Source of the DNA: Candidatus Omnitrophota bacterium
GTDB lineage: Bacteria > Omnitrophota > Omnitrophia > Omnitrophales > Aquincolibacteriaceae
DNA: 64,000 nucleotides
Assembly: GCA_043821445.1 (NCBI GenBank)
Contig: JBDRCT010000003.1
Coordinates: forward strand, 5,440 to 69,439
Direction of reading: 5' to 3'
The notes under the pieces are model-generated. The model ran no database searches. It was not told the DNA's origin and worked only from the letters and a program-made list of their open reading frames with translations. Of the stretch, positions 3,696-64,000 are shown piece after piece. The first letter of the stretch is position 1. Each line of letters opens with the position of its first letter. The position numbers were made by a program, and so were the translations under genes.

Positions 3696-5121
<1,426 letters not shown>

Positions 5122-39410: not shown

Positions 39411-39423
39411 TGTATCACAAAAC

Positions 39424-42095: not shown

Positions 42096-42133
42096 GAGAG
42101 AGAGATTAACAGAAAATCTCCAAGAAAACAGCC

Positions 42134-42168
42134 AAAAAAAACCCGCCCTGCTTTTTTCAAGCAGGGCG
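42134..42168 (-). terminator. Rho-independent terminator of the pilin gene
   Basis: On the minus transcript: 10-bp stem cgccctgctt / aagcagggcg with a 5-nt loop, followed by U8. Confidence 0.85.
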
Positions 42169-42201
42169 AGTCGAAAACCACTTTGTCTTGTTCCTTACTG
42201 A

Positions 42202-42681
42202 TTACCCACCAATGGCCGTACCACCCGCGCAACCCGTATCGGCCGCGGTCGGCGCTACACCTGCCGTCGGACCATAAACAACACCCGCCTGGTCAATGCA
42301 GTAGGTGTTTTCCGCAGCAGCCGTCGGCGTCGCCAGCAGAGAATACGTGCTGGAAGGAGAGGCGACCGTAAGGTACGTCAGAGTGAACCCATGCTTGACT
42401 CCGGCTTCGACCCACGAATCATCAAGATACGCAGGGCCCGTCGCCGGAGCGGTCGTCAATGCGGCAATATCAGCCGGATAGTCCGGAGGATTCTGCGCGG
42501 CACGATAACTTTCAGCAGCTCCGCTGAATGTCCTCAGATCCGACTTGATGGCACCCTCATTGGCATTGATTCGCGCCCGGAGAAGATTGGGGATGGCAAT
42601 AGCGGCCAAGAGCCCGATGATCGCAACTACGATCATGATCTCCACCAGCGTAAAACCCTTCCTATTTAATTTGATAAACAT
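42202..42681 (-). CDS. pilA: type IV pilin (prepilin with N-terminal methylation motif)
   Basis: Start MFIKLNRKGFTLVEIMIVVAIIGLLAAIAIP is a class III signal (G|FTLVE). ATG at 42681 is preceded by AGGAGG. The tracked ORF has a 23-aa upstream extension. Confidence 0.85.
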   Translation of the reverse strand: MFIKLNRKGFTLVEIMIVVAIIGLLAAIAIPNLLRARINANEGAIKSDLRTFSGAAESYRAAQNPPDYPADIAALTTAPATGPAYLDDSWVEAGVKHGFTLTYLTVASPSSTYSLLATPTAAAENTYCIDQAGVVYGPTAGVAPTAADTGCAGGTAIGG

Positions 42682-42872
42682 GTTATTCCTCCTGTTTCTA
42701 TGTTTGCCACTGCCTACTACTAGCCTAAGCTGGTATACATCATACGACAATACGTTGGATAACTAAACTAGTTTTTTTGTTATCCGAGTTATATCCCACA
42801 ACTTTAATAAGCATCACTGAAGGGCCCTGAGGCAGATTCCTGCATGTTTTTGCGTCGGGAGGAAGGATTTCC

Positions 42873-44114: not shown

Positions 44115-44117
44115 AGC

Positions 44118-45812
44118 TCACTCCCGGCTTGCAACGCGAAGCACTTCCTCGAGCGTGGTCACCCCGGATTTAAAGAGTCCCAGTGCGTTCTCGAAGAGTG
44201 TCTCCATTCCCTTTTCAACGGCAAGCTGATGAATAACATTACTCGATTTTTTCCGGATTACAAGCTCCCGGATGTCCGGGTCCACAAGCAGCACTTCACT
44301 TGCGCCGGTCCTGCCAAAATATCCCGTCATGTTGCACTTGATACAACCCTTTCCCGTGAACGGGGCGATCCTGTCCAATTCCGACTTGGAAAATTTACAG
44401 CGAAACAGGACTTCCGCGGGTATGACGGCCGGGGCCCTGCAATTCGGGCAGATCTTCCTGAGTAGACGCTGGGCGCCAACGCATACGACCGACGAGGCGA
44501 TCAAAAAAGGCTCCACTCCCATATCGATAAGACGTGTCATCGCACCGGCCGCGCTATTCGTATGAAGTGTGCTGAACACTAGGTGCCCGGTCAAGGCGGC
44601 TTTTACCGCAATATCGGCAGTCTCCGAATCGCGGATCTCTCCCACCAGTACAATGTCCGGACTTTGGCGCAAGAGAGCGCGTAAACCGTTCGCGAACGTA
44701 AGCCCGATCTCCGGTTGCACCTGCGTCTGCGTGATCCCTTCAACCTGATATTCGACAGGATCCTCTACGGTCATTAAATTCTTTTGCGGCGTGTTCAGAG
44801 AGTTAAGGATCGAATATAGAGTGGTGGATTTCCCACTGCCCGTCGGCCCGGTGATCAGGATCATCCCATAAGGCTTTTTGACCGCCTCAGCAAGAGCACG
44901 CGTCGGTTTTTCCGTAAAACCAAGCTTGTCAAGCCCCGTCCTGATCCCGCTCCGGTCCAGAACGCGCAACACCATTTTCTCGCCGAAATAGGTTGGCAAC
45001 ACGGAAACACGAAAATCGATCTGCCGGTCCTTGAGTAATAACCGGAACCGCCCGTCCTGGGGTAAACGTTTTTCAGTAATATCCAAAAGAGAAATGATCT
45101 TCGCCCGCGCCACGAGAGCGGGATAAAGCTCCAAGGAATGAGAAAACGACTCTTTCAAAACCCCGTCGACACGGTACCGAATACGGAATTCTTTTTCATA
45201 AGGCTCGAAATGGATGTCGGACGCGCGCGATTTGAGGGCTTTTTCGAGAATGAAGTTGACCATCTTGATGACGGGTGCATCATCGACTCCGGCCTGCACG
45301 ACAGACGGCAACTCCGTTTCATTCTCTCTGACAAGCTCCAGGCTGTCTGCGTCTTTTTCGGTAATGAACTCAGAAAAGTTTTTGCTTTCCGCGTAATGGT
45401 CGCTGATGGCAGCGGCGATCCGTGCAGGCGTGACCAATACCGGACTCACATCGCATCCCGTCAGATGCTTGATATCATCGAAAACCCTCAGTTGGAATGG
45501 ATCGCTTGTGGCCACGGTCACAAGTTTCCCGACGCGTCCTACCGGAAAAACATGATGCAGCTCAATGAATTTCCGTGAAAACATCCTCAGGACTTCTAGA
45601 TCGAACTGCATTCCGTGGAGATTCAAGGTGGGGATCTCAAGTTGAGCGCTCAAAAAATCCATGACCTCTTCTTCCAACAGGATCTTTTCTGAGAGGATAA
45701 TTTTCAAAATGCTTTCATTGTGTTTCTGTGCCGTCTGTTCCAAACGGTCACACTCCCCGTCGGAAAGCCCCATTGTTTTCACCCATGCTCGAACGATTTG
45801 CTTGTCGATCAT
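44118..45812 (-). CDS. pilB: type IV pilus assembly ATPase PilB / GspE family
   Basis: 564 aa. N-terminal T2SSE_N domain. Walker A ITGPTGSGKSTT. Tetracysteine CPNC...CIKC. Confidence 0.9.
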   Translation of the reverse strand: MIDKQIVRAWVKTMGLSDGECDRLEQTAQKHNESILKIILSEKILLEEEVMDFLSAQLEIPTLNLHGMQFDLEVLRMFSRKFIELHHVFPVGRVGKLVTVATSDPFQLRVFDDIKHLTGCDVSPVLVTPARIAAAISDHYAESKNFSEFITEKDADSLELVRENETELPSVVQAGVDDAPVIKMVNFILEKALKSRASDIHFEPYEKEFRIRYRVDGVLKESFSHSLELYPALVARAKIISLLDITEKRLPQDGRFRLLLKDRQIDFRVSVLPTYFGEKMVLRVLDRSGIRTGLDKLGFTEKPTRALAEAVKKPYGMILITGPTGSGKSTTLYSILNSLNTPQKNLMTVEDPVEYQVEGITQTQVQPEIGLTFANGLRALLRQSPDIVLVGEIRDSETADIAVKAALTGHLVFSTLHTNSAAGAMTRLIDMGVEPFLIASSVVCVGAQRLLRKICPNCRAPAVIPAEVLFRCKFSKSELDRIAPFTGKGCIKCNMTGYFGRTGASEVLLVDPDIRELVIRKKSSNVIHQLAVEKGMETLFENALGLFKSGVTTLEEVLRVASRE

Positions 45813-47578
45813 GGGCCGCCCCCTCTGGGTGGTAACCCAGCATCCGCTATCGTAACGCGGAAAACCTCATCGAGCGATGTTTCGCCCGTTAGGGCCTTTT
45901 GGACCGCAGATTCGCGCAGCGTGTTCATTCCGTGTTCTCGGGCTCTGGCCTTGATCGCATCCGCGGACGCACCTTGCATGATCAGCTCCAAGATATCCGG
46001 CTTCATTTCCAGGATCTCGGTGATCACGCTCCGGCCCTGATATCCCAGTTGGCGGCACTGCGAACAGCCTTTGGCTTTCCAGAGCTGGACCTTCTTTTTC
46101 GGATCCAGGTTCAGGAACTTATACATATCCGGTTCTAGATCGTATGCGAAGCGGCAACGCGGGCAGAGGCGGCGCACCAAACGCTGGGCCGAGATCATCA
46201 GCACCGTCGACGCAATCAGGAACGGCTCTAGTCCCAAATTCGCCATGCGGGTCACAGAACTCACCGCATCGTTGGTGTGAAGCGTGCTCAAAACGAGATG
46301 ACCCGTAAGCGCGGCCTTGACGGCGATATCGAGCGTTTCCGCATCGCGGATCTCCCCGATCAAGATAATGTCAGGATCTTGACGCAGGATCGAACGGAGA
46401 GCCGCGGGAAACGTCAACCCAATGGATTCGCGAACATTGACCTGATTGATACCGGCTATCTGATATTCCACAGGATCCTCGACGGTCGTGATATTGACCT
46501 GTGGAGAATCCAAATACTTAAGGACCGAATAAAGTGTGGTCGTCTTCCCGCTCCCGGTCGGCCCGGTCACGAGGATCATCCCATGCGGCTTCTTGGCGGA
46601 AGTCCGGATCACCTCCTGCTCTGATGCCGTAAACCCGAGTTTTTGAATGTCATGAGACTGTGCCCCGGTATCCAAAATGCGTAAGCAAACTTTTTCGCCG
46701 AAGCTGGAAGGCAATATGGAAACGCGCATGTCCACTTCCCGGCCCTGAGTTCTCACTTTAAAACGGCCATCCTGAGGCACTCGATGCTCCGCAATATTGA
46801 GCTGACTCATGATCTTGACGCGGGAAACAATGGCATCGCCAAAACTTTTTTGGGGTCTTACGATCTCTTCGAGAATACCGTCAATGCGCATGCGGATCCG
46901 GACAAAACCTTCCCAGGGTTCAATGAAAATATCGCTCGCACGGCGACGCACCCCCTCCACGAGCGCCATGTTGACAAGTTTCACGACTGGGGCCTGGTTC
47001 GCCTGCTCCATGAGGTCCGAGGCCTGCTGCTGCTTATCGAAGATCGCTTCGCTTTCGACCATATGGGCAAGAGAGATGAGGTCTTCGGTGCCTTCATCCG
47101 GAACGGGTTCTTCCAAGACAGCGGTCTCTCCCTGATAGGATTTCTGTATGTATTCCTTGAGCTGGGAATATTCCGCCACCGAGACCCGGATACGCTTTCC
47201 GGTCAAGGAGTGAAGTTCATCCAAAGTCTTTAGATTGGTCGGATTCGCAACCGCGACCGTCAACGTATTTTCATAGAGAACGATCGGGAGACACACATAG
47301 GCCTCCGCGATCTTCCGGGGAATGAGTTCCAGGACTTCTTTGTGAATGATAAGCATTTTGAGACTGACGATACGATAGCCGTACTCTTTACAAAGAATGT
47401 CCACGAGTTTTTTTTCGTCGCATTTTCCTTTCTGAAGAAGAATGTCCAGAAAATGGAGCTTTTTCGAGCTCTTGGCCTGCTCCTGGATCGCCTGCTGAAG
47501 TTCCCCTGAATTGACGACCCCGAACCGAAGAAGGGCTTCTTTCAGGTCCGGCAATGAACTTCGCTTGGGGTCCGTCAT
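45809..47578 (-). CDS. second GspE/PilB-family secretion ATPase (paralogue)
   Basis: 589 aa. N-terminal T2SSE_N-like domain. Walker A VTGPTGSGKTTT. Tetracysteine CPRCR...CSQCR. 4-nt overlap with pilB. Confidence 0.85.
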   Translation of the reverse strand: MTDPKRSSLPDLKEALLRFGVVNSGELQQAIQEQAKSSKKLHFLDILLQKGKCDEKKLVDILCKEYGYRIVSLKMLIIHKEVLELIPRKIAEAYVCLPIVLYENTLTVAVANPTNLKTLDELHSLTGKRIRVSVAEYSQLKEYIQKSYQGETAVLEEPVPDEGTEDLISLAHMVESEAIFDKQQQASDLMEQANQAPVVKLVNMALVEGVRRRASDIFIEPWEGFVRIRMRIDGILEEIVRPQKSFGDAIVSRVKIMSQLNIAEHRVPQDGRFKVRTQGREVDMRVSILPSSFGEKVCLRILDTGAQSHDIQKLGFTASEQEVIRTSAKKPHGMILVTGPTGSGKTTTLYSVLKYLDSPQVNITTVEDPVEYQIAGINQVNVRESIGLTFPAALRSILRQDPDIILIGEIRDAETLDIAVKAALTGHLVLSTLHTNDAVSSVTRMANLGLEPFLIASTVLMISAQRLVRRLCPRCRFAYDLEPDMYKFLNLDPKKKVQLWKAKGCSQCRQLGYQGRSVITEILEMKPDILELIMQGASADAIKARAREHGMNTLRESAVQKALTGETSLDEVFRVTIADAGLPPRGGGP

Positions 47579-49353: not shown

Positions 49354-50555
49354 AGGTATTCAAGCGCTTTCGTCGCGGCCTTCTCCTGGATCTGATGACG
49401 CTCCCCCCAGAAAACATGCTTCCAGGTCCGGACCGTTCCGTCAGGTGACGCAAGACCGATATAAACAAGGCCAACCGGTTTCCGGGAACTTCCACCGCCG
49501 GGCCCGGCAATCCCTGTAATGCCGACGCCGAAATTGGATCCCATGCGGATACGGACCGATTTTGCGAGCAGCGAAGCGACCTCTGCTGAAACCTCCCCGC
49601 GCTCCCGGATGAGTGTTTTCGGAACGCCAAGATCCGTTTTCACGTCCGCATGGTACGTAATCACTCCCCCGCGAAAATAAGCGCTGGCTCCGGAATACGC
49701 CGTAATGCGCGAGGCCAAAAGCCCGCCTGTGCAGCTTTCCGCGACGGCCAGTGTTTGCTTTTTTCTTGTCAGGATCTTTCCGATCACGATGGAAAGAGGC
49801 GTTTCATCCCAGCCGTAAATCCAGTTCTTGAGCCGGGTCGCGATCTTTCTTTTGAGCCGCCCGAGAACAGTGGTTTTCTCCGAAAGAATGCAGATCGCGA
49901 TCTCACCGGCCGAGGGATAGATCCCGAAATCGAACGGATCGTCAAAAAAATCTTTTCCGAGCCTTTTCATCACATCGGGTTCCGAAATACCGACTATTCT
50001 TACGATCAATTTCCGGCTTTTAAAAAGGTTCCCGTACTTCTTTTTCAGGAATGGCAGGACCACGTCAAAATACATGTTTTGAAGCTCCGAAGGAACGCCG
50101 GGAAGCGCGATCACGATCTTGGATCCGGTCTCGACCAAAAATCCGAGCGCGATCCCAAAACGATTAACGAGGGGTTTCGCGTTCTCGGGATAAAAGGCTT
50201 CGCGTTTGACAAGAGGAGGAATGCGTTTACCGTAACGTTTATAGACTTTTTGCAAATGGCTGTACTGCCGGGCTGAAAAAACAAGGGGGACCTTGAAATG
50301 CGCGGCGATACCTTCACGGGTCACATCATCGGGCGTCGGCCCGAGCCCCCCCATCATGATGACCAGATCCACGCGACGGAGCACCTCGCCCAGCCGGAAA
50401 CGGATTGCCTCCATCGAATCCGGGCAGACGCCGTGGGAGATGACCTCGAACCCGAGGCCGGAGAGCTCACGGCCGAGGAATGCGGCATTTGTGTTGACCA
50501 CGCTCCCGCGCAAAACTTCATTGCCGACAGAGAGGATAGCGGCCGTGGGCTTCAT
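49335..50555 (-). CDS. cinA: CinA (competence/damage-inducible; MoCF-like + CinA C-terminal domain)
   Basis: 406 aa. N-terminal MoaB/MogA-like domain ILSVGNEVLRGSVVNTNAAFL. C-terminal CinA domain. Confidence 0.9.
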   Translation of the reverse strand: MKPTAAILSVGNEVLRGSVVNTNAAFLGRELSGLGFEVISHGVCPDSMEAIRFRLGEVLRRVDLVIMMGGLGPTPDDVTREGIAAHFKVPLVFSARQYSHLQKVYKRYGKRIPPLVKREAFYPENAKPLVNRFGIALGFLVETGSKIVIALPGVPSELQNMYFDVVLPFLKKKYGNLFKSRKLIVRIVGISEPDVMKRLGKDFFDDPFDFGIYPSAGEIAICILSEKTTVLGRLKRKIATRLKNWIYGWDETPLSIVIGKILTRKKQTLAVAESCTGGLLASRITAYSGASAYFRGGVITYHADVKTDLGVPKTLIRERGEVSAEVASLLAKSVRIRMGSNFGVGITGIAGPGGGSSRKPVGLVYIGLASPDGTVRTWKHVFWGERHQIQEKAATKALEYLWRKIC

Positions 50556-51565
50556 TTGAAGATCACGAACAGGATAATCCAGGCATAGAGCCCGGCACCG
50601 AGATCATCGGCCATGATACCCCAGTAACGCGGAATACGCTCAAGCGACCGCACGGGGAAAGGTTTAAATACGTCAAAAACGCGAAACAAAACGAACCCCA
50701 AGATCGCAGAAGACCAGGTGATCGGGATCAGCATGAACGTTACGAAAATACCGCAGACTTCGTCGATCACAATGTATTGTGGGTCCGGGTCCGGATCCGT
50801 GATCCGTTCATAAGCCAAAGCGCCCCACACGACAAAAAACACAAAAACCGCCCCGTAAAGCCCGCTACTCCACCGGGTCAGAAAAACTAGAAGAACACCG
50901 AGCAAACTTCCCCACGTCCCGGGAGCCCTCGGAAAGAGCCCCACCCCAGCCGCAAGAACGAACCTGTTGAATGCTTCGGATTCGAAATGAGCCCGTTGGT
51001 TCCAGAGGAACATGCCGCCTGAGATGATCGTCAATGCGACCGTCGTGATCAACAGGACCGGAAGAAGATAATAAAGCATACCCGTCACTACATCGAGCGC
51101 GGGATAAGGGTTCAGAAGTAAATAGGCAAAAGCGATCCACACCGTGACCGTCTGAAAACCGAATTTCAATTTGCCCATCATTTCGGCACCCAAGGACTTC
51201 CCTTCGAGAAGCCACCCGGTCCGGCAGAATGTCACCAGGATCTCACGGATAAAGATCGGAACCACCCACCAGATCGAATAAAAATGGAGGGCCGCAAAAG
51301 CAGCCATCGGCGCTAAGATCAGGATCTTGTCATTAAAAGGATCGATCCACTTGCCAAAGTCGGATTCAAGTTTGTACTGACGGGCGATCCAACCATCGAA
51401 ATAATCGGTGATCGCACCTACGATGAACAAAATAAAAGCCCAAAGATGTCCCGACGGGCTCGGCCGCAGGATCAAGAACGGTAGAGAAAGCCCGATCAGT
51501 CCCCGCGCGATGCTCAGCACGTTCGGGATCAGGAGAGAGTATTTATATTTCGCCCACGAGGTCAT
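50552..51565 (-). CDS. pgsA: PgsA-PgpA fusion: CDP-diacylglycerol--glycerol-3-phosphate 3-phosphatidyltransferase fused to phosphatidylglycerophosphatase A
   Basis: 337 aa. N-terminal CDP-alcohol phosphatidyltransferase motif DYFDGWIARQYKLESDFGKWIDPFNDK. C-terminal PgpA-like motif LFRVFDVFKPFP...YWGIMADDLGAGLYA. Lies upstream of cinA, as pgsA-cinA in Bacillus. Confidence 0.75.
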   Translation of the reverse strand: MTSWAKYKYSLLIPNVLSIARGLIGLSLPFLILRPSPSGHLWAFILFIVGAITDYFDGWIARQYKLESDFGKWIDPFNDKILILAPMAAFAALHFYSIWWVVPIFIREILVTFCRTGWLLEGKSLGAEMMGKLKFGFQTVTVWIAFAYLLLNPYPALDVVTGMLYYLLPVLLITTVALTIISGGMFLWNQRAHFESEAFNRFVLAAGVGLFPRAPGTWGSLLGVLLVFLTRWSSGLYGAVFVFFVVWGALAYERITDPDPDPQYIVIDEVCGIFVTFMLIPITWSSAILGFVLFRVFDVFKPFPVRSLERIPRYWGIMADDLGAGLYAWIILFVIFK

Positions 51566-52986: not shown

Positions 52987-55900
52987 TTACGCGGCAGACT
53001 GGATCGCCTGCAACGCCTGCATTGCGATTACCAGCATCTTGCTCAAAGCATCCTGGCTGAACGAACGGAAACCATTTTCATCTTTCTCTCCGTTGAGTAC
53101 TTCCTTGATCGCATCGACCTCGCTCGCGCTCAGGATTCGCTGGGACACGATGGACGCAAGGGTCGAAGTCGCGACCCGGCGGCTCACATCCGTACTATAA
53201 GGCTCCTTGATCATGAGCCCCCTGCCTGTATCCGTCTTGAACACTTTCAAAAATTGATCGGAACCCATAAAGACATAACCCAGTGGCCCTCTGGAAATCG
53301 CCGGCATTGTTTTCATTTTCGAGGTGATAAAATTATTCAGAGCAGTTTCCGGATTATTCTTATCGACCACGATGATATCAAAACGTTTTTCGGCGTTTAA
53401 TTCCTTAAGAGTTTTTGCTAATCGCTGCTCCATTCCCCTCTTTCGTTGCTCTGCTGCCGCAACTTCAGCCGCACCGTCCGCCATCAACACCATAACCTTC
53501 CCTTGCATTTTATTAACCAATGTCCCGAGATCTGCGGGCTCAATGATCGCATCCGCAGGCACGAGCTCAATCTCAAGCCCCTGCTTGTCCATGATTTCAA
53601 TTTGGGTCGTTTTCCCAAATAATGCTCCTGCCAACCCAGTAAAGACATCCCGAATAGCGGTGACCCAACCCGCGGTTTTCGCAGCGCTCGCGTTCGCAAG
53701 TTGCACAATAACATCAGCCATTTGCTCCGCCTTCAACCCGTCATCGAACACCATCCCCGCCACCGCCGCTACAATGACCGGCCCTTTCGCTCCCTGAACC
53801 TCCAGATTATTCACTGCCTCGACATTTGGCCCAATTTTAGCCTGCTCGACAACCAACATATCAGCAGGTGAGATTGCTTCACGAACGACCCTCATCTCGG
53901 AGCGTTGAGTTCCCGGCTCAGCTCCCGGAGATTCGGTTTCAAGGCGCTTTCCAACGGCCTTGAGTTCAGCCGCAACACGAGTTTTTTCGATTTTTGCTGC
54001 TTCAGCTTCGCGCACCTCAGAACGTTTCTCCGTCCCAGGCGCTCCACCCGGCATCTGATCGGTAAATTCCCTTTCAACAAAATCGTTCAACTTATCGATG
54101 CTGACTTCCTCCAGATCCCTGAAGGTCGCGAACATCTTCCTGGCCCCTTCCGCCCAGGATTCCTTTACTTTGGGCGGCTCACTCTCCCAAATAGCCAACA
54201 AGTCACTCACCGTCCTCCAGCGGGCATACTCATTTTCTCCCCTCCCGCCGTTCATCTTGAACCGGTCATAAATGGCGCCGGGATTGGCTTCCAAAACATA
54301 TTTTTGTATCGGGATGTACTTACCCTTAATTCCTGACAAGACCGCGAACCCTTTTTGCTGCGCCAGCCCCAACGCAACACAGAGAAGTGCTAATCCCGGA
54401 TGGAGCCCAATGCGCTGCGGAAAGGTCTCCCGAATCTGTTCCTTTTGATTAAGCCCGCCCGTGATCACAGCCACTCTCAATGCTTCACCGTTCTCTGCCT
54501 GCTGAGTATCAACGCCGATGCGATAGATCCATTGGGTCCTCTCACCTATCGCCTCCCCGATGGCTATGAGAACCCCGGAGGAGCCTTTCCCGAAGCCATA
54601 GCGCATTTCGATCAAGTAGGGTGTGCCACTGATACGCGCGATCTGTACGGATTGACGTCTCCGGAACTCCGGAGCGAACATCTGTTCCATTTTTTTCATA
54701 TTCTGTGTCGCCAAAACTAATTTTGTTTTGCTATCAAGTCCCGGCGGCAGATTGTAAAAAAACCGCCCTTGAGGATTCTGATCGATACGATATTGGCTCA
54801 AATAGGTCCTGAAAAAATCCTCGAAAACTTCGGCGGGAACGTTCCGCGGCACGACCTGGTTCTCCATCATCCACTCGAACAAGCTCCCGGTCTGCTTCTC
54901 TTCGATCTCCATGCTTTCCCGGAGCTTTTGGGACAAAAGCTTTAGCAGCTCATCGCAGGGTTTTTTTGTGAATGCCCGGATCCTGAAAATATAGTCCAGG
55001 GTTTGTTGGACCAGATCGAGCCTAAGCGGCTCACCCGCCGAAGGACTCAAAAGCCATGAAGCAATCTCATTCGCCTTCTCGTTCGAAAGGATCTGCCGTT
55101 TCTTGACGGAAACCGTCAGATACCCCAAAATATCCTCCCGCGTCTCGGAGCGAGCTGAAGGTATGGCCTCTTTAAGATGACCTGCGAGAGACTCCAAATA
55201 GGCTTCATCCACTTGCGGACCGACCCAATCGGGAGACTTTGTGAGATAGACTTTAGGATCGGGCTGGAGACCGTAGCGGTTCAGGAAATCCAAAAGCGGT
55301 GTGCTTTGTTTCCCGAAGTTATTTGGGTCGGTGTGATACCCTGCAGTTCCTAGTTCCTTTCTCATGTTCACCGTAATCCACTCCGGCGGCGACTCTTGGA
55401 GCGAATAAGCGTCAGCACAAACGGTCACGAATGTTTCGGTTCCAAAGATCTTCCCGGCCAGTTGATCCAGCTCCTTACCCTTCAGTTCAACGATCACAGG
55501 CCTGAACCACCATCCTATCTTTTGCATCGTCCAAATACGAATCGCCACAGGGCCCAGGATCTTTTCTGATGGCGGAACATGGACAAAATAAGTGATAAGT
55601 CCTTCGCGTAAAGCACGCGACCCCCAGTTCCCTTCGTTAATGGGTACTAAATATTGCTGCGTCCACGTTCCAACATCCGGATGGGCGTCAAAATTCACCA
55701 GGATCGGCAAAGCGGGGTTGGCCTCCCCCCGTTGTTTTCTCTCGCGGAACCGCTCCCGGAGATAATCTAAGACCCCGTCATGGGTCTCGATCGTGACCAC
55801 TTCTGTCCCAACTTTCGTCAGGACTCCTTTTCGCATTTCGGAGCGGGAAACGGGCTTTTCAGCAATGAGTTCGGAATAAGGCACGCGACGGCCGCCGAGT

Positions 55901-58900
55901 TCGTCTAGGGATTGTCTGGCTTTTTCGCGCTGAGCCTTGTAGAAAAGAAAAAGAAGCGCGGGAGCTTTGGCGGGGTTGAATCTGGCAATCTTACCGTATT
56001 TCCCTTCGTCCACGTCCATGGCCTTTTCGAGATCTTCCGGGGAAACCGCCTTTACCACATCCGAAAGCCACGCCGCCATCTTCATAACATTATCGATCTT
56101 TTGAAGAGGAGTGAGTTGAGAAGCGAGTCCGTTGAGACGCTCCAGGTCTGCTTGCTGGGCAATGATCAACAGAAGTATGGGAGATGTCGTTTCCGGAGTA
56201 CCCGGGATTTTTTTAAGTTCCTCTTCTAACTTCAACCCCGCCTTGTCAAATGTTTCGATGGTGGTGGGCGGACCACGATTCCTTTGGACATCCCCATGAA
56301 AAACTTCCACTATTTCGTCCGGGGCCACCCGGAAGATGATCTCTCCCCTTTCAAGCATCTCTGGGACCGTCTCTTCATCTTTGACCCCAAAAAGTTCGCG
56401 GGCGCTCCCGGAAACGGCTGTAATGGCCTGATCTCCGCCTTTATAGCCAACCCCGTCCATGTTTTGATATTCATGGAAGGCTCTCGGGATCGCCTGTCCC
56501 TTGTAACCCAGAACAATGAGGTGTCTCGTTTCCTTAATATCAACTTTCCGCGCTGCCTCCTGTCCCGCTCCTTCGGTTAAGAGACCTGTAAGGGTGTCGA
56601 TGATCTTCGGGTCCCTTTTTTCAGAGCTCGATGCCCGTTCTGCGAGCTTTTTCGACACCTCTTCGATCTTGTCCCGAGTCACTTCCTTTTTAACAAAAAT
56701 CCCGACTTTCACCTGATTCCTTTTCTTTTTAGCTTCCGAAAGTGCGTCATTGGCCAGCCACATCGCGCACTCATCAAAAAGTTCTATGCGCTCAGGCCTT
56801 AAAGTTTCTACGTCATCCTTTATATAAGTCCAATAATTGCCGCCGTCCTCGTGCTTAACGTCTTTCATCACCTCTTTAAAATAGTCCAGCACCCCGGACT
56901 GTTCCGGGAATTCAGGGTTCCCGGCAGCAGGAGCCGCTCCGATAGAAATAGTGAGAAATCCCCATTTTTGGGGAGTTGCGTTTTCAGATTGGATCTTTTC
57001 AAATCGGATCTCGTGAAGCTGATCGCCTTCCAGATTCAGTTTCGTATGAAGATCTCGCAAAAAGTCCTGCCATTTTCCCTCAGCATCTAACTTCCTCCGA
57101 TCGACACGGATGTATGTGCTCCCCGCATAAAGCACTGCGCTAAGTACGGAAGCATATTCTTTTGATTCGAAAATCTTCGCTTCATTTTCAGTAAGCGTTT
57201 TCTCCACTTCTAAAACCGCATAGCGTCCAAAAAATTCTTCATTGAGGTCTCGCAGGAAATTCTCCAGATCTTCTTGGGTAACTTTCCTTGCGGGAACGAA
57301 TATGATTTCATCGCCTCCAACACCCCGGTAAACTTCTAGGCCATATTTTTTGGCGATCACAAGTATCGTTTTCCGGTAATCGAGAACGGGTGAGTCTTTG
57401 GGCGTGATAAGATGCTCACCCGATCTTTCCAGGCTCATGACCCCCACGATGCCTTTCCCGCCGAGTGCGAGATTCTTGGCGCCGATCTTATCGAAATCCG
57501 ACATATAAAAACGGAAATTTTGAAGATCCGTCACACTTGGGTGTGCCCGCAGATATTTCAAACGTTGTTCCTTTCCGTCGTCCTGTGTTCCCCAGCCGTC
57601 CGATGATTTGAAAGCGTCCGGTTCAACACGAATTCCCAATTTTTCAGCTGTCTCAGGCGTCAATCGCGTGCTTGCGGGAATGGTAACCGTTTCAATTTCT
57701 CCGGTTTCCGAATTCCGGTGCGTGATCTTGAGGCCACCCTCTACTGCTACCTGGAGGTTCAGCAAATCTGCTACTGCCGCTTTGTGACTTGTCGGCGGAC
57801 TCGAATAGACATCGACAGCGCCGCCTTCTCTCATGGCCACTTCCAGCCCCCGAAGCTGCTCATTGATCTCGTCGATCTTCTCCTGTGTTATTTTCTCTGT
57901 CCGCATCTCGGAGCGTGGGAAAGCCATCAAAGCCGTTGCCGGTGTTTGCTGGGTGAACCGGTCCCCGGTATCGCCGCCATCAACAAAAAGAGCCTCCTTG
58001 ATGTCATAGGTGGTGTGCCAGTTTTCTAATGCCTCTATAAGCTTAGCCGTGGTCGGTCCCGTCCAACCAAAAATATCCCAGCCAAAAATATCCAGAGTGT
58101 GGACCCTTCCGCTTGGATCTACCCCCACAACGCTTTTCCGGCCTGAGAAAATACTTTTATGCCAATTCTCAATATTAGGATTCAAATTTCCTTCCGTGAT
58201 AGCCATGGGACCGGCCTGAAAACCTTGCGCCCATTGCTCTTTCGGGTAATTCTCCGGACGAAAGCCTTCTGCTGGCCTGATAAGCACGTCTCCGTTCCTG
58301 TTCAGTAGAAAAATTCCTTTCAACATGGCTGATCCGTTTTCTATGAATGCCCTATCCTGAGCATCCTCGCTCAACCGGAACCACCCTATGGCTCTCCTGC
58401 TTATCTCCCTAAAAGGATTGGCGTTCGAGACGTAGGTCCACCCCTCAGCCAGCAGTTGTTTGATATCCTTCCGTTCCACAATGCGGAACTCATATTTTTT
58501 GGGATCGAATTCGCGGGTCCCTTCGCTACTCCAATGATCGACCGTTGCCTTCTGTGCCACCCCAATCCCAAGAGACAAACCAAGAGCCCCCAGCAACAAG
58601 TTCCGCCTTGAGAAGATTTGAACCTCTTCCTGCCGCATCTCGGAACGCCCCTTGCCTTTGGGCGTGGCAGCTTTTCCGGCTTTTGCTTTTTGTGGACTGG
58701 GTTTCACGGTTTTCGGAGGGGTCTTTAAAATAGGATCCAGTTGTCGCGCGTACTGATTGAGCTCTGGGGTCAACCGTTCTACGGTATCTTTCGCATCGCG
58801 AACGGCCTTTGCCGCCTCGTTTTTGATCATTTCCCATTCGGCCGCCGTGTACCCTTTGTTGGAATAACCTTCCAGTTTTTTAAGCATTCGGCCGGCCTCA

Positions 58901-61900
58901 CCGAGATACCCCGTTTCAAGTTTTGCAAGGTTCCTTAGATTAATAGAAATGCGGTTCCTATATTGTTGAAGCTTCTTAAGATTGCGTTCTTTAGCGGGTT
59001 TATCCATTTCTCCCCGAATTGCTTCCGCAAGCGACTCGGCATCCCGGATCCTGCGAAGCGAGTTGGTAAGGGGCACGTTGACATGTTCGACCTGGTAGAG
59101 ATCCACCGTGAGATTCTTGAAAAGTGCGGCCGTTTGCTTCCGGTAACTGTCGCTTAAGGCTTCGCCCATCGTTCGTTCCACCAACTCTGCCGCAAACGCT
59201 TTAACGGCAACCGCTTTTAGGTAGGTCGCAAGCCCGTAATGAAGGTCGGCTTCCTCCCCCTCGTTCCTGGGCTTTGCGGTATCTCCCAGGTAAGGCGTAT
59301 TGTATTTCCTGTGGAACCGCGGCCACCCATCCTTCTCCCCGGGCCGGCCGGCAACATCCTGGGCTGAGGGTTCCATACGAATGAGGATAAACAGCCGCCA
59401 CAGGAGATGCTGCAACGTCGGGTCCGACGCGATACTTTCACGAACCCTGGCCGTTTCCGGTCTCCCCCTCTTTTTCTTTCTTATATTGTCTAAGTCCAGG
59501 GTGTTATATGTTGGGGACTTAAGCGCCTTATAAAAAGCGTCCACGCCGGGCGTCCAATTCTTTTCGATGAGCTGCCTAACAGGACTGCCTTCAGGAGCCA
59601 TCATTGCTTCGCGAAAAACGTCGACCGCCGATTGGGCTTCGATCTGGAAGGGGCCGGCCGCAGGACCTTTTTTCTTTTGATAGGGTTCGAACGTCGGATT
59701 TTCGAGATAGGTCAGATAGATCGCAGCGAACGCCAGATGCTGGATGCGCTCGGCACGTTCTTTTTCAGAAATGCCGGGATAAAGTGTCCTCTCGGAATCC
59801 CTTAAGAAAACCATGGTGTCCAGGTAGTGACGGACAATACGCTGCATCCGTTCGTCCTGTATATTCTCCGTATCGATCGCCGTCAAATCGCCTTGCAGCG
59901 CTTCAAGATCAAATGGGGTAAGTGCCCTCACCGGCGCGACGAGGGCCGTACTGACCGTCGAAGGTTTGCCTGGCAGCAATGCATTGTGAAACACGTAATA
60001 GACCGCCCCCCCAATCAGCAACACCAATGACAGTGTACCGATCACAAGCGTTCGTTTGATACGGGCAAGTTCGGACTTGGGAATTATGATCCTTAGCCGT
60101 ACTTTATCCTCATCCCGAATTTCGGAGCGGGAATTCTGAACGGCCCAATTGATGACTGCCTGGGACAGTTGACCGGGATAGGCGTTGATCAGGCCGGAGC
60201 TCGATATGCTGAAGACAACAACACTGTCTGGAACGGGCGGCGTTTTGTAACCGTCCGAATTGGGGTCGTATCGTGTTACCGCCAGCGGCACAGAGGCTGC
60301 CTTCGCGGGATCATATTTTGGGGGGTCGAAAACATAATATCGGGTTTTGAAAAATTCGGCGGTTTCAACGCGGGTAACGTTCTCCTCCGCCAAAAAGCTC
60401 CTGCTTCCAGCCAAACCCTGCTGGTAATGCGCCATATGGATCAATTCGTGGAGAAGGGTCCCTGTAAATATCTCCCATGCCGCGTTCCGGTCTTTTAGCA
60501 CCCAATCCAGAGCGCCCTGATCGACCGCGATAAGCTGCGAGTACGCCCGCCCACCTGCCCCACCTCCGGGCCTGTCTGTGCTATTGGGACTGACAAAGAC
60601 ATGATTTTGCCAATTGGGATCTGCCAGCAGGTCCCGGACAACGGGATCTCTGCTATTGGGCGCCATCGCCGCGATCTCTGCCCACGCTTCTTCCAGGACC
60701 TTTTTCGCTTCAGCCGGGAGATCACGGAATGCGGTATATCCAACCGGTATATCGCTCGGTGCAACTACCGAGAGGCCCCGCGCCCCCTGGCTGCAGGCCG
60801 TTCCCGCGGTCATCACAAACGCTGCAACAGGCGCGGTCCTCGCCCAAAACACCGGATTCGAAAAGTTTAGCGATGCCGCGAGAAGTACTAATGAGGCGTT
60901 CCGTTTTAATTTTGCGGAAACTCCCCGCACCCTAGGGGCAGAAGTCTCTACCTTGGCCTGCCGGCCCGCAGCGATCCATGCTTCATCCCAAACCCGGCGA
61001 ATCTCCTCTTCACGTTTTTCCAGGCCTGGAATTACATCATAAATGAACACGGCCTTTTCATCCCGCATCTCGGAGCGGCCACTAAACAACTCCGGATGTT
61101 TTCGGAGTATCCTATCGATCATCGGGCGGGCTGCTTGTTCCGCAAGCAGGGATCTTCTTATCCTTTTGTATCTTTCGATAAGCTTCGCACGAACTTCCAG
61201 TGAAACCCGCTGATCGCCCACTAGTTGGAGAAACTTCATGTTCTCTCTTGAAGCGCTAAAAAGGTCGTCCACGGACCCGTCCTCATTGAACCTGTCCCAA
61301 TGGTCATTCTTTTTGTTTTCTTCGCCGGCCAAACCCGCTAAAACGTTAATCGTTGTTTCTTTCCCGGCAGATCGCAACATCGCGGCTAATGTGGCCTTAA
61401 AATCTTCCTTATGCGCTCCCCGGTCGTCGAGGAGGGCCGCGTCCAACGCACTAAAGGCAGCAATGGGATCAGGGTCTTCCCCAAGCATCCGGATCGCCTG
61501 CCCTAAAGCCTTCCCATAAGTCAATTCCCGACGCTTGACCTTCTCCTCGAGCCAGAAAAAAAAGTCTTTTCGAAATTGTTCCCCACGTCCCGGCTCCCGA
61601 CTTAGTTGATCCATTTCGGTCAAGGCTTGGATATAAACCTCATCCATCGTTTCGGGCGTGGAACCACGGATCAGCTCCTTCCAGTGCGCCTCCATCTCCC
61701 GAAAAGCTTCGGAGTCCAAAGGACTGGCAGGTGACGACCTTGGACCTTCCGTTCGAGGGATCGCTGGGGAGACTTGACCTGCGTCGGGAGCTTTTTCGAG
61801 GAGTTCCTCCAGCCGCGCGATCTCGGCATCCATGCCGGCAAGAACTTCTTCTTTTGTAGCGATCGGGTCGATCCGACCGCTTGCGCCATTGAACTGGATC

Positions 61901-63990
61901 CCGCCCTTGTTAAACGCCAGATGACCGGGATCGCCCTCGTCCACATCAATGATAAAAACCCGGTTGTTTGCGCGAAATAATTTCTTCAAGTGGATATGTG
62001 CACCAACAATTCCGGCACAGCCAAGTCTCGTCAAGTAATTATCAAGAACAGCTTCATTGACCCGGGGCTCGGCACCGTCAACGGAGGAGCCGAAGAATTG
62101 ATCAATCCAGTCTTTTTTCTTGGCCCAAAATATATCTTTTGCGCTCAAAAAATACCCTGTCAGATGATCCTGATTGGCTTTTATTTCCAACCTCGGATCG
62201 TTCTCTAACCCCTTTTGAATGGCCGACCATTCTTCCCCAAGCCTCTCCAATGCTTCCCGGTCGATCGTGGGATTTCCGTCCTTGTTCATGGGAATACCGG
62301 CATGGACATGAAGGAACCCGCGCTCGTCCTCGGCAAAAAGTTTGAAATTCCGAACCATCCAGAGAGCCAGCTCTTGAACAGAGGAAAGATCCCGGACCAG
62401 CCAATCCGCTGCATAACCGCCAACCTTCTGTTCTGCTTCATTCATTTCCTTTAATGACTCTAAGAGCATTCTTTCGTCACCTGTCTTGCGTGCCTGGCTA
62501 TATTTTTGGATTGCCCGTCGATATTTAATTGCTGCTTGATTTGCCGCCTCGACTTCTCCCGGCCGGAATGGAAATCCAAACTCCTTGAGCGTTGCACAGG
62601 CGCCATTGATAATCCAATCCGTAAACGTACTCGGATCCTTTAATAGAACGGATTCGATCATAAAAACATCGTGGTTCCCGAGGAATAGGTCAACCTTGAT
62701 ATTGGGATGATCTTGGGTAAGTTGGACCAGTTCCTGAAAGATCTCCCAGACCCTTTTGTTTTGGCCTCCGCGGTCAAATCCGTCTCCGTGACCCATGATG
62801 TGAAGGGGCTTCCCGGTCCTGGCAGCTTCCTTTGCCTCCGACAGGATCGCTTCCAGATCCCCCACTTTCCCGTGCTTATCCCCGAATGTTAATATCTCGG
62901 GAATTTCACGGCCCTCCGCATCACGACCTGTTGCAATACGCTCCTGGGAACCTTTCAGGTAGTCGATCCTTTTTCTGTAATACTCTTTCGTTCCTGGCAC
63001 CTCCCGCATTTCGGAACGGGTAACGGGAGGCTGTTGTTCTTCGGCTTTTGGCGCCACCGTTGATCCGGCATTTATGTTAAGTTCTGCTAGAGCATTAATT
63101 AATGCATTGATCCGCGCGGATCTTTCCGCGTCTAGGCGATCTACATTTTGTTCTTTGACTACTTTTAAAGCCTGCAGGACCGTCGCTCCTAGAGCCTGTT
63201 GCCGTGTCCGTATCAAGCTCAAAACATCTTCCGGTTTTCCCCCAAGGACGCGCTGAAGATCCTGGGGATCGATCGAAGCCACATCGCGTACGGCTTGAAC
63301 CAGGAACTCAGGACCCGCTTCACTCAACGCTTTCAACACCAAGGGACCATCGAATGAGAACGGCGTACCGATCGGCTGGATTCCGGCAGCATTGGTCAGG
63401 TCATAGAGGACATAGTAGCGGCGTCCGTCGATCGTGGAAATACCGACATTATGGTCCAGTTTAAAATCGGTGGCCCCGGTAAGCGCCAAAAACGCCAGGA
63501 TCTTCTCGATCCCCGAAGTACGCGGGTCAGCCAACTCCGGCAAAGTCAGATCGTTTGCATCACGGGACAAAATGGCGGTCACAGAATTCAGAGAATTGAT
63601 GTCGTAGCGCAAACCCATAATCTGCGCGTTCCAATATCTGGAAAATTTTTCGGGCATTGATAAATCTTCCACAGAGATCTCGGTCCAGCGCGGTATGTTT
63701 ACACCCGCAAGCGCTGCTAACTGATACCCTCTCTTTTCTTTCTGCATTTCTGAAGGTGTGTCCAGTTTTAGGTACCATTTTTCATTCGTGGTCCTGTCGT
63801 TGACGTACCAGGCGTATTCCGGAGCTCTTTTCAAAACCTCTAAATCGACCGCTTTGGGAAACACCGCCGCGGCTCCCCCTTGATCCCGCACTTCGGACCG
63901 GGAAAGAACTTTCTTCAAACCCAAGTTGAGTTTGTGTTTTAACTCCTCCGTGAATTCCTCCGGGATGATCTTTCCCGTAGGCAACTTCAC
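52987..63990 (-). CDS. giant 3,667-aa multi-enzyme polyprotein; modules separated by conserved R-S-E-[MVIT]-R junctions
   Basis: Uninterrupted 11,004-nt ORF. Junction copies at aa 32, 326, 973, 1289, 1783, 2027, 2717, 2948, 3324 and 3364.
Modules:
- aa 36-325: kinase-like (TDFKLDHNVGIS...YVLYDL).
- aa 330-972: PPP metallophosphatase (GDxHG-like HIMGHGDGFDRGG; GNHD; VHAGIP; GAHIH).
- aa 977-1288: HExxH metallopeptidase (TLLHELIHMAHY).
- aa 1293-1782: TM signal-anchor plus possible lysozyme-like region.
- aa 1787-2026: Tat-like signal (SRRNLLLGALGLSLGIGVAQKA) plus phosphodiester-glycosidase-like (ALFVDGGDTG).
- aa 2031-2716: GGDEF-like palm (SDFDKIGAKN...RGVGGDEIIF).
- aa 2721-2947: DAHxD motif (LVNFDAHPDVG).
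- aa 2952-3323 and aa 3368-3667: unknown. Confidence 0.8.
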   Translation of the reverse strand: MKLPTGKIIPEEFTEELKHKLNLGLKKVLSRSEVRDQGGAAAVFPKAVDLEVLKRAPEYAWYVNDRTTNEKWYLKLDTPSEMQKEKRGYQLAALAGVNIPRWTEISVEDLSMPEKFSRYWNAQIMGLRYDINSLNSVTAILSRDANDLTLPELADPRTSGIEKILAFLALTGATDFKLDHNVGISTIDGRRYYVLYDLTNAAGIQPIGTPFSFDGPLVLKALSEAGPEFLVQAVRDVASIDPQDLQRVLGGKPEDVLSLIRTRQQALGATVLQALKVVKEQNVDRLDAERSARINALINALAELNINAGSTVAPKAEEQQPPVTRSEMREVPGTKEYYRKRIDYLKGSQERIATGRDAEGREIPEILTFGDKHGKVGDLEAILSEAKEAARTGKPLHIMGHGDGFDRGGQNKRVWEIFQELVQLTQDHPNIKVDLFLGNHDVFMIESVLLKDPSTFTDWIINGACATLKEFGFPFRPGEVEAANQAAIKYRRAIQKYSQARKTGDERMLLESLKEMNEAEQKVGGYAADWLVRDLSSVQELALWMVRNFKLFAEDERGFLHVHAGIPMNKDGNPTIDREALERLGEEWSAIQKGLENDPRLEIKANQDHLTGYFLSAKDIFWAKKKDWIDQFFGSSVDGAEPRVNEAVLDNYLTRLGCAGIVGAHIHLKKLFRANNRVFIIDVDEGDPGHLAFNKGGIQFNGASGRIDPIATKEEVLAGMDAEIARLEELLEKAPDAGQVSPAIPRTEGPRSSPASPLDSEAFREMEAHWKELIRGSTPETMDEVYIQALTEMDQLSREPGRGEQFRKDFFFWLEEKVKRRELTYGKALGQAIRMLGEDPDPIAAFSALDAALLDDRGAHKEDFKATLAAMLRSAGKETTINVLAGLAGEENKKNDHWDRFNEDGSVDDLFSASRENMKFLQLVGDQRVSLEVRAKLIERYKRIRRSLLAEQAARPMIDRILRKHPELFSGRSEMRDEKAVFIYDVIPGLEKREEEIRRVWDEAWIAAGRQAKVETSAPRVRGVSAKLKRNASLVLLAASLNFSNPVFWARTAPVAAFVMTAGTACSQGARGLSVVAPSDIPVGYTAFRDLPAEAKKVLEEAWAEIAAMAPNSRDPVVRDLLADPNWQNHVFVSPNSTDRPGGGAGGRAYSQLIAVDQGALDWVLKDRNAAWEIFTGTLLHELIHMAHYQQGLAGSRSFLAEENVTRVETAEFFKTRYYVFDPPKYDPAKAASVPLAVTRYDPNSDGYKTPPVPDSVVVFSISSSGLINAYPGQLSQAVINWAVQNSRSEIRDEDKVRLRIIIPKSELARIKRTLVIGTLSLVLLIGGAVYYVFHNALLPGKPSTVSTALVAPVRALTPFDLEALQGDLTAIDTENIQDERMQRIVRHYLDTMVFLRDSERTLYPGISEKERAERIQHLAFAAIYLTYLENPTFEPYQKKKGPAAGPFQIEAQSAVDVFREAMMAPEGSPVRQLIEKNWTPGVDAFYKALKSPTYNTLDLDNIRKKKRGRPETARVRESIASDPTLQHLLWRLFILIRMEPSAQDVAGRPGEKDGWPRFHRKYNTPYLGDTAKPRNEGEEADLHYGLATYLKAVAVKAFAAELVERTMGEALSDSYRKQTAALFKNLTVDLYQVEHVNVPLTNSLRRIRDAESLAEAIRGEMDKPAKERNLKKLQQYRNRISINLRNLAKLETGYLGEAGRMLKKLEGYSNKGYTAAEWEMIKNEAAKAVRDAKDTVERLTPELNQYARQLDPILKTPPKTVKPSPQKAKAGKAATPKGKGRSEMRQEEVQIFSRRNLLLGALGLSLGIGVAQKATVDHWSSEGTREFDPKKYEFRIVERKDIKQLLAEGWTYVSNANPFREISRRAIGWFRLSEDAQDRAFIENGSAMLKGIFLLNRNGDVLIRPAEGFRPENYPKEQWAQGFQAGPMAITEGNLNPNIENWHKSIFSGRKSVVGVDPSGRVHTLDIFGWDIFGWTGPTTAKLIEALENWHTTYDIKEALFVDGGDTGDRFTQQTPATALMAFPRSEMRTEKITQEKIDEINEQLRGLEVAMREGGAVDVYSSPPTSHKAAVADLLNLQVAVEGGLKITHRNSETGEIETVTIPASTRLTPETAEKLGIRVEPDAFKSSDGWGTQDDGKEQRLKYLRAHPSVTDLQNFRFYMSDFDKIGAKNLALGGKGIVGVMSLERSGEHLITPKDSPVLDYRKTILVIAKKYGLEVYRGVGGDEIIFVPARKVTQEDLENFLRDLNEEFFGRYAVLEVEKTLTENEAKIFESKEYASVLSAVLYAGSTYIRVDRRKLDAEGKWQDFLRDLHTKLNLEGDQLHEIRFEKIQSENATPQKWGFLTISIGAAPAAGNPEFPEQSGVLDYFKEVMKDVKHEDGGNYWTYIKDDVETLRPERIELFDECAMWLANDALSEAKKKRNQVKVGIFVKKEVTRDKIEEVSKKLAERASSSEKRDPKIIDTLTGLLTEGAGQEAARKVDIKETRHLIVLGYKGQAIPRAFHEYQNMDGVGYKGGDQAITAVSGSARELFGVKDEETVPEMLERGEIIFRVAPDEIVEVFHGDVQRNRGPPTTIETFDKAGLKLEEELKKIPGTPETTSPILLLIIAQQADLERLNGLASQLTPLQKIDNVMKMAAWLSDVVKAVSPEDLEKAMDVDEGKYGKIARFNPAKAPALLFLFYKAQREKARQSLDELGGRRVPYSELIAEKPVSRSEMRKGVLTKVGTEVVTIETHDGVLDYLRERFRERKQRGEANPALPILVNFDAHPDVGTWTQQYLVPINEGNWGSRALREGLITYFVHVPPSEKILGPVAIRIWTMQKIGWWFRPVIVELKGKELDQLAGKIFGTETFVTVCADAYSLQESPPEWITVNMRKELGTAGYHTDPNNFGKQSTPLLDFLNRYGLQPDPKVYLTKSPDWVGPQVDEAYLESLAGHLKEAIPSARSETREDILGYLTVSVKKRQILSNEKANEIASWLLSPSAGEPLRLDLVQQTLDYIFRIRAFTKKPCDELLKLLSQKLRESMEIEEKQTGSLFEWMMENQVVPRNVPAEVFEDFFRTYLSQYRIDQNPQGRFFYNLPPGLDSKTKLVLATQNMKKMEQMFAPEFRRRQSVQIARISGTPYLIEMRYGFGKGSSGVLIAIGEAIGERTQWIYRIGVDTQQAENGEALRVAVITGGLNQKEQIRETFPQRIGLHPGLALLCVALGLAQQKGFAVLSGIKGKYIPIQKYVLEANPGAIYDRFKMNGGRGENEYARWRTVSDLLAIWESEPPKVKESWAEGARKMFATFRDLEEVSIDKLNDFVEREFTDQMPGGAPGTEKRSEVREAEAAKIEKTRVAAELKAVGKRLETESPGAEPGTQRSEMRVVREAISPADMLVVEQAKIGPNVEAVNNLEVQGAKGPVIVAAVAGMVFDDGLKAEQMADVIVQLANASAAKTAGWVTAIRDVFTGLAGALFGKTTQIEIMDKQGLEIELVPADAIIEPADLGTLVNKMQGKVMVLMADGAAEVAAAEQRKRGMEQRLAKTLKELNAEKRFDIIVVDKNNPETALNNFITSKMKTMPAISRGPLGYVFMGSDQFLKVFKTDTGRGLMIKEPYSTDVSRRVATSTLASIVSQRILSASEVDAIKEVLNGEKDENGFRSFSQDALSKMLVIAMQALQAIQSAA

Positions 63991-64000
63991 GGCACTATTC

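Follow-up and report, generated by a model that had tools for sequence, protein, structure and literature searches.

Giant proteins of the Omnitrophota are a current puzzle. West-Roberts et al. (bioRxiv 10.1101/2023.11.21.568195), who discuss Archaeovorin or dockerin types, suspected that such giants are cleaved, at points that they stated to be unknown. Nielsen and Lui (bioRxiv 10.64898/2026.06.07.730766) described "multi-enzyme metabolic clusters" with sparse transmembrane helices and made no mention of junctions, linkers, cleavage, polyproteins, or twin-arginine translocation (Tat). Our own search for literature on Omnitrophota polyproteins or Tat/TatC returned nothing relevant. Here, we describe a stretch of 64,000 nt (the window) from Candidatus Omnitrophota bacterium (assembly GCA_043821445.1, contig JBDRCT010000003.1, positions 5,440-69,439 of the forward strand), which carries the C-terminal 3,667 codons (52987..64000, minus strand) of a 6,270-aa scaffold protein, P0001. 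Our subject is a twin-arginine-like segment that lies deep inside this protein, directly past a five-residue junction motif, at the head of a module (M5) with the fold of the NAGPA/DUF2233 phosphodiester glycosidases. The segment is one case of a family-wide pattern, which suggests that the scaffold proteins are organized like bacterial polyproteins.

The scaffold proteins share with the published Omnitrophota giants the phylum, many unrelated enzyme domains per chain, sparse transmembrane helices, and nearby genes resembling those of the type II secretion system (T2SS) and type IV pilus (T4P). They differ in that the two papers cover proteins of at least 10,000 aa and mention no junction motif, common N/C scaffold, or internal export signals. 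Tat signal peptides, as described by the PF10518 and TIGR01409 models, have in common with the window segment an S-R-R, a moderately hydrophobic Gly-rich stretch of 17 residues, a basic c-region, and a following domain expected outside the cytoplasm; unlike them, the window segment is located 4,387 residues from the N terminus, lacks the consensus Phe and Lys, and scores under the thresholds of both hidden Markov models. The dual Sec/Tat polytopic proteins (the actinobacterial Rieske protein Sco2149 and related families; PMC3471235, PMC5449189) also contain an internal RR and a modestly hydrophobic helix, preceded by helices that are more hydrophobic and even in number. Those proteins are small, bear cofactors, and end in the exported domain, whereas in P0001 ∼1,850 more residues come after the NAGPA domain, thousands of residues separate the helix from those before it, and the helix lies at a conserved junction motif.

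A further comparison is with viral polyproteins that contain internal signal sequences, such as those of the Flaviviridae. They resemble P0001 in having many units per open reading frame (ORF), short boundary motifs, and signal or anchor helices past the boundaries, although for their in-cis protease P0001 provides only a candidate. The P0001 family, in contrast, is cellular and chromosomal with several paralogues per genome, and uses R-[S/A]-E-x-R or lineage alternatives as its motif, at which cleavage is a prediction. To our knowledge, an organization in which the products of a polyprotein are individually sorted is otherwise found mainly in viruses and a few toxins. Compared to the MARTX toxins, the modules of P0001 have no RTX repeats or CPD cysteine protease domain by Pfam/NCBIfam, P0001 carries an N-terminal Sec-type signal where MARTX carries a C-terminal type I secretion system signal, and MARTX toxins do not feature export signals inside the chain. 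The DUF2233/NAGPA phosphodiester glycosidases (PF09992; 3ohg, 6pky) share their fold and their FQxGP and DGG motifs with M5; the M5 subfamily differs in that it is found only as internal scaffold cassettes or fragments and is 11-14 % identical to solved members.

A twin-arginine-like segment at the head of a NAGPA-fold module

The giant ORF is encoded at 52987..63990 on the minus strand. Because its frame continues without a stop codon up to the window edge, the 5′ end of the ORF is cut off by the window. Window numbering of residues starts at the GTG at 63990. With the whole ORF as query, a database search identified the full-length protein P0001, from an Omnitrophota metagenome-assembled genome (MAG), and six relatives of 3.4-5.8 kaa (thousand amino acids); scans of genome contigs and metagenome contigs with the whole ORF returned no relatives. 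A first-pass annotation of the window had reported a Tat-like peptide directly after an RSEMR junction inside the giant ORF, beginning at the Met of the junction, and the sequence bears this out (58638-58546, minus strand). The same annotation had numbered this Met (58638-58636) as residue 1785 of the protein, a consequence of the truncation by the window; its real position is residue 4388 of 6,270.

The translation across the M5 junction and the segment reads ...KGKGRSEMRQEEVQIFSRRNLLLGALGLSLGIGVAQKATV..., in which the RSEMR that opens M5 (58633..58647, minus strand) corresponds to residues 1782-1786 in window numbering and 4385-4389 of P0001. The segment itself, MRQEEVQIFSRRNLLLGALGLSLGIGVAQKA (58546..58638, minus strand), consists of an n-region with S-R-R (residues 1794-1796, 58611-58603), a Gly-rich uncharged h-region of 17 residues, NLLLGALGLSLGIGVAQ (residues 1797-1813, ending at 58552), and a c-region with a Lys, continuing as K-A|T-V to about 58545. 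The c-region had been described as AxA-like. This needs qualification, since VAQKA places a Gln at -3 and thus provides no clean AxA; an alternative site, G-V-A|Q, would fit. In the AlphaFold2 (AF2) model, residues 14-42 of the module form a single long helix.

M5 spans 57916-58647 (minus strand) and is closed by a second RSEMR (57901..57915, minus strand), which also opens module M6 and at which the ends of the homologous cassettes align. The earlier suggestion that the ∼200 aa following the segment resemble DUF2233/NAGPA proteins is well supported. The globular domain, which includes the DGGDTG motif, lies at 57919..58515 (minus strand). M5 scores 24.7 bits (E 3e-5) against PF09992 (NAGPA), for which the cut-off is 25, and nine of 13 aligned homologous cassettes match the family (best E 4.8e-7). 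An AF2 model built on the cassette alignment (pLDDT 87.1, pTM 0.82) shows a compact alpha/beta domain at residues 45-243. The top Foldseek matches of this model are the DUF2233 structure 3ohg (E 1.5e-7, TM 0.58) and the NAGPA catalytic domain (6pky/6pku/6pki, E 7e-6 to 1e-4, probability 1.0). F143, Q144, G146, P147, D223, and G225 are invariant across the M5 cassettes. Judged from the model, the M5 domain is of the DUF2233/NAGPA fold and is a putative glycosidase. Characterized DUF2233/NAGPA members work outside the cytoplasm, and an export signal on M5 is therefore functionally coherent. These data support that the segment heads a discrete module with an extracytoplasmic-type fold, directly past a real module boundary.

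Searched exhaustively with HMMER, a set of 1.84 billion representative proteins yielded 18 relatives of M5. Every relative that could be judged is either a cassette within a scaffold protein (up to 7,830 aa) or part of a fragment of one, and no free-standing member of the M5 NAGPA subfamily was present in that set. With M5 alone as the query, a word-indexed homology search had no matches; a sequence-profile search of the PDB had none that were significant. P0054 is a 1,404-aa scaffold with the NAGPA cassette as its sole cargo. The layout was compared among 15 homologous cassettes, all inside related proteins, with identities of 22-45 %. In 13 of the 15, a basic stretch and then an uncharged helix (15-25 aa) lie at most 51 aa downstream of a junction and are followed by the NAGPA domain. 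The linker that flanks the helix is not conserved, whereas the helix and its basic n-region are kept in these 13. The junctions that open the homologous cassettes are of the types RSEVR, RSEAR, RSENR, RSDTR, GARLA, and GFGA.

Junctions, shuffled cassettes, and post-junction helices

Ten junctions occur in the window ORF (starts at 63900, 63018, 61077, 60129, 58647, 57915, 55845, 55152, 54024, and 53904, minus strand). The ten copies of RSE[MVIT]R compare to 0.0095 expected from 2,000 shuffles, and the motif is absent from every other ORF of the window. Within the motif the codons vary synonymously (CGT/CGC/CGG, TCC/TCT, GAA/GAG, and CGG/CGA/CGC/AGG), which indicates selection on the peptide and not on a DNA element. 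This variation rules out that the junction arose as a repeat at the DNA level or from a mobile element. Extending the count to 17 relatives yielded 170 junctions, and translated GTDB loci (an independent set, 121,755 aa) contained 265. Position 4 of the motif is variable, with V47, M35, A22, S18, I16, and L14 among the 170 junctions and Thr and Gln also frequent. The R-S-E-x-R motif and the N/C scaffold are not described in the literature that we searched, and a search for the string RSEMR gave unrelated matches only.

When modules were compared one by one with BLAST, the alignments of homologous modules paired residue 1 with residue 1 at the junctions, yet the order of modules varied among proteins, and we conclude that the junctions are true shuffling boundaries. 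The junction corresponds to residues 1-9 of M5, which are disordered in the AF2 model (pLDDT < 50), and junction flanks are enriched in small and acidic residues; such a site is expected to be accessible to a protease. Other scaffold lineages use other short motifs, namely GARL[AST] (P0047), GFGA (P0052, P0053), and ASLG (P0007, L056, L067), as would be given by co-evolving pairs of protease and site.

P0001 contains 18 R[SA]E.R junctions in total and begins with a Sec-type signal peptide, MKTAWMGKRTKKTVSLLTMGFFLVSQFAFA|NPG. Five of its six relatives have the conserved N-terminal domain of ∼620 aa, all six have a similar short tail, and five of six have variable modules separated by R[SA]E.R, the motif being absent from P0007. 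In the scaffold, enzyme cassettes form a variable array, each of them opened by R-[S/A]-E-x-R, between an N-domain that bears a Sec-type signal and a C-domain, both conserved; in P0001 the C-domain lies at 52990-53889 (minus strand) and ends in ...QSAA. A profile of the N-domain found 252 loci in species-representative genomes, and every named record is Omnitrophota or Omnitrophica; among named records, the scaffold protein is found only in this phylum. Several MAGs carry multiple scaffold paralogues. In proteins of ∼1,000 aa (P0010, P0015, P0020, P0022, P0025, P0028, and P0031; e.g., L001 10001-13108), the N-domain is apparently followed, with no cargo, by a C-terminal region that ends in the family tail. 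Together with the single-cassette P0054, these empty scaffolds make the giants look like a cargo-expanded small scaffold.

Hydrophobic helices are concentrated just past the junctions. Across 17 giants, 17 of 31 strongly hydrophobic segments lie no more than 80 aa downstream of a junction, compared to 18.6 % expected (p = 7e-6). The independent set of GTDB loci gave the same picture, with 53 of 98 helices within 80 aa after a junction and 17.4 % expected (p = 2e-16). Some of these segments resemble classical Sec signal peptides (e.g., "GRSELRSNWWQK|IGLALMGLALSLNVARAQ") and others are Tat-like (e.g., "PVTRR|TFFAASLGLLASALTVEAG"). The N-flank of post-junction helices has more Lys and Arg than the C-flank in 43 cases, an equal number in 10, and fewer in 4 (sign test p = 3e-9), whereas helices distant from junctions show no bias in flank charge (13/11/19). 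This polarity does not alternate within single proteins, as seen in L021, L024, and the M4 and M5 helices of P0001. In L021, which has up to eight successive isolated post-junction helices, Lys and Arg on the C-flank never exceed those on the N-flank, and two of the eight are ties. Module M4 of P0001 (58648..60129, minus strand) opens with the junction RSEIR (60129-60115), contains an invariant GPAAGPFQIEAQ motif, and has no Pfam relative or, by sequence-profile search, PDB relative; a likeness to lytic transglycosylases at the level of motifs was noticed and carries no weight in our arguments. The post-junction transmembrane helix of M4 (RIKR followed by TLVIGTLSLVLLIGGAVYYVF, about 59998-60054, minus strand) is N-flank-positive, as is the helix of M5. 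Under the positive-inside rule, an uncleaved chain would require alternating polarity, while independent signal-anchors or signal peptides require none.

Proposed cleavage, possible export routes, and competing explanations

Our preferred explanation, to which we give even chances, is that the segment is the module's own export or membrane-anchor signal, belonging to a mobile NAGPA/DUF2233 cassette in a giant scaffold and most probably put to use after cleavage at the junction. The chain would be cut at or near the junction, in the manner of a polyprotein, either by the scaffold's own N-domain (TIKI/RRSP-like fold) or by another protease. The junction arginines and the S-R-R would then form the positively charged n-region of a new N terminus, and the 17-residue Gly-rich helix would send the NAGPA domain, folded or unfolded, across the cytoplasmic membrane or anchor it on the outer face. 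The window copy could take the Tat route, with ordinary Sec/signal recognition particle (SRP) signal-anchoring for many of the sister cassettes. As in known polyproteins, several independent functional units lie in one ORF and are separated by a recurrent short motif. The position and uniform polarity of the post-junction helices lend indirect support to a free N terminus generated by cleavage. As encoded, with its Met at residue 4388 of 6,270, the segment does not have the N-terminal location of a Tat signal, and it would acquire that location solely through cleavage at the junction. The junction motif with its lineage variants, the N/C scaffold, and the post-junction export or anchor signals thus provide candidate cleavage points and a testable architecture for these giants. 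If cleavage takes place, the family would be a large group of chromosomal bacterial polyproteins with individually sorted products.

The candidate for the junction protease is the N-domain (P0001 residues 1-605, outside the window). Its fold is of the EreA/ChaN/TraB type and has a further match in the RRSP endopeptidase, and H81 (IQ[ND]AH), E109 (VEGA), and H530 (GG[FY]H) are invariant; at the sequence level, neither Pfam nor a PDB profile search gave a relative. The EreA/ChaN/TraB superfamily includes the TIKI Wnt protease, and it is plausible that the N-domain acts as a site-specific endopeptidase. At L001, a minimal scaffold locus, no dedicated protease or Tat gene is adjacent, and an M48 peptidase a few genes away was judged not meaningful.

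Several observations weigh against cleavage followed by sorting. The N-domain follows a Sec-type signal peptide and is therefore predicted to be outside the cytoplasm, which is hard to square with cutting of junctions in the cytoplasm. The N-flank bias of post-junction helices is lost when the junction's own arginines are left out (22/17/18), so that the argument from polarity rests on the junction motif itself. In P0004, P0006, P0040, and P0051 the Tat-like helix lies 67-276 aa past the nearest junction, and a free N terminus close to the RR is therefore not universal. The published reading of the transmembrane helices in Omnitrophota giants is that they anchor uncleaved membrane proteins (bioRxiv 10.64898/2026.06.07.730766). 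It should also be noted that cleavage and its protease are predictions from sequence.

The involvement of Tat in particular is a separate matter, and we consider specificity of the segment for Tat possible but somewhat doubtful. The first-pass annotation had called it a canonical Tat signal. The S-R-R and the uncharged h-region, whose 17 residues fall in the range of about 13-20 seen in Tat signals, uphold part of that description, but the peptide scores only 12.4 bits (E 0.16) against PF10518 (Pfam TAT_signal; cut-off 22.7), has no match to TIGR01409 (cut-off 16.7 bits), and, as S-R-R-N-L-L-L, retains the Ser and RR of the consensus S/T-R-R-x-F-L-K without its Phe and Lys. An RR directly precedes the helix in eight of the 15 cassettes and is absent from about half; the cassettes with no RR have ordinary K/R-type signal-anchors of 21-25 aa. 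S-R-R is found in five cassettes, which are the window copy, P0046, P0047, P0051 (with the textbook motif "ISRRGILK"), and P0055. Relative to other post-junction helices, of which 6 of 53 have an RR, the NAGPA cassettes are enriched (Fisher p = 0.0013), a value that overstates independence since the cassettes are homologous. Internal peptides of two relatives do exceed the TIGR01409 cut-off (P0006, 23.7 bits; P0004, 17.3 bits), and these head module types other than the NAGPA cassette. A tblastn search of the 64-kb window and of 1.23 Mb of related loci with TatA, TatB, and TatC gave no match, which is a weak test. Also weak as a test, a search for ordinary Tat substrates among the 1,076 ORFs of the available DNA found none; its N-terminal matches were three false positives of the FabF/FabB type and one apparently spurious ORF.

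The most substantial alternative is an uncleaved giant membrane protein, in which the helix is an internal topogenic element, either a Sec/SRP start-transfer sequence or a Tat-dependent final helix as in the dual Sec/Tat proteins. It was claimed earlier that an internal Tat signal makes sense only with a free N terminus. This is too strong, because proteins with an internal Tat-dependent helix after an even number of Sec-inserted ones have been documented (PMC3471235, PMC5449189). Two strong hydrophobic segments, and no more, lie upstream of the M5 helix in P0001 (residues 14-28 and 3916-3934); after insertion of these two by Sec, as the N-terminal signal and the M4 transmembrane helix, the RR would be cytoplasmic and the NAGPA domain with the part that follows would be carried outside. 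The distance of some relatives' Tat-like helices from any junction fits this scheme, as does the description of Omnitrophota giants as membrane-anchored with about one transmembrane helix per 370 aa (bioRxiv 10.64898/2026.06.07.730766). However, ∼1,850 residues of cytoplasmic-looking modules (M6-M10) would have to cross the membrane after the NAGPA domain, the positive flank of the M4 helix would face outside, and successive post-junction helices throughout the family do not alternate in polarity. Nor would an uncleaved chain give any role to a five-residue motif at every module boundary or to its lineage-specific alternatives. On balance, we regard an uncleaved chain as rather unlikely; were it correct, the paradigm of dual Sec/Tat integration would be extended to a Tat-like helix inside a ∼690-kDa protein.

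The remaining explanations are all improbable, to differing degrees. The segment could be a leftover signal that no longer has a targeting role, dating from a time before in-frame fusion when the exported NAGPA protein had a gene of its own. Cassette shuffling, with modules acquired as units, agrees with such an origin, and a Met precedes some of the internal Tat-like motifs in the manner of a fossil start codon (P0006, "TMSRRRFLR"; P0047, "DMSRRNWLR"). A relic is nevertheless quite improbable given that the helix and its basic n-region persist in 13 of 15 cassettes of such low identity while the linker does not, that post-junction helices are a statistically strong, family-wide feature, and that the 1.84 billion representative proteins hold no free-standing subfamily member. 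Slightly less probable still is that the scaffold proteins are effector polyproteins delivered by a predatory or episymbiotic bacterium. Such proteins would be exported by Sec and the T2SS/T4P-like system, the N-domain would cut at R-S-E-x-R inside the host or prey, and the freed Sec, Tat, or anchor cassettes (e.g., NAGPA) would hijack host translocases to attack the host envelope from inside.

We attach the least weight to the idea that translation starts inside the ORF, at the junction ATG (58638), and yields M5 as a protein of its own that begins with a Tat signal. A Shine-Dalgarno (SD)-like AAGGGG is located 8-9 nt upstream of this ATG, and its predicted pairing energy of -6.6 kcal/mol is better than that of the window's gene starts (median -4.7). 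Yet the ATG ranks merely 24th of 215 internal in-frame start codons, and the other five junction Mets pair at 0 to -4.3 kcal/mol with no SD-like element. Only 35 of the 170 junctions have a Met at position 4, and the junction types of the homologous cassettes listed above point the same way. Initiation at the junction ATG, which the first-pass annotation had named as one possibility, was rejected as a general mechanism on the composition of position 4 and the SD pairing energies.

Other modules and neighboring genes

Additional cassettes of P0001 illustrate the variety of the array. M4 and M5 are neighbors both in P0001, where M4 precedes M5, and in P0040, where the order is reversed, and P0002 has a HELGH multi-transmembrane cassette in the place of M5. 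M2 (61078-63018, minus strand) is a calcineurin-like metallophosphatase cassette that is common to P0002, P0003, P0005, and P0055. A homologue of M7 (55153-55845, minus strand; motif NFDAHPD) lies within the giant P0007, whose N terminus is SecA-like and which lacks RSExR junctions, and cassettes have therefore been exchanged between different scaffold types. A similar C-terminal tail, ...[Q/K/R]-[S/A]-A-COOH, is present in every family member (QSAA in P0001; 52990-52998, minus strand) and could be a recognition or sorting signal.

The remainder of the window is ordinary bacterial chromosome, with MiaB, a PgsA/PgpA fusion, CinA, and a T4P/T2SS-like cluster. This cluster (37734-47578, minus strand) encodes a secretin, PilM, a PilC-like T2SSF protein, and two PilB-like ATPases. 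It lies ∼5-15 kb downstream of the giant gene, in agreement with the published association of giant genes with such loci. A single ORF at 50552-51565 (minus strand) contains PgsA-like CDP-alcohol phosphatidyltransferase and PgpA domains and is an apparent fusion of two consecutive steps of phosphatidylglycerol synthesis.

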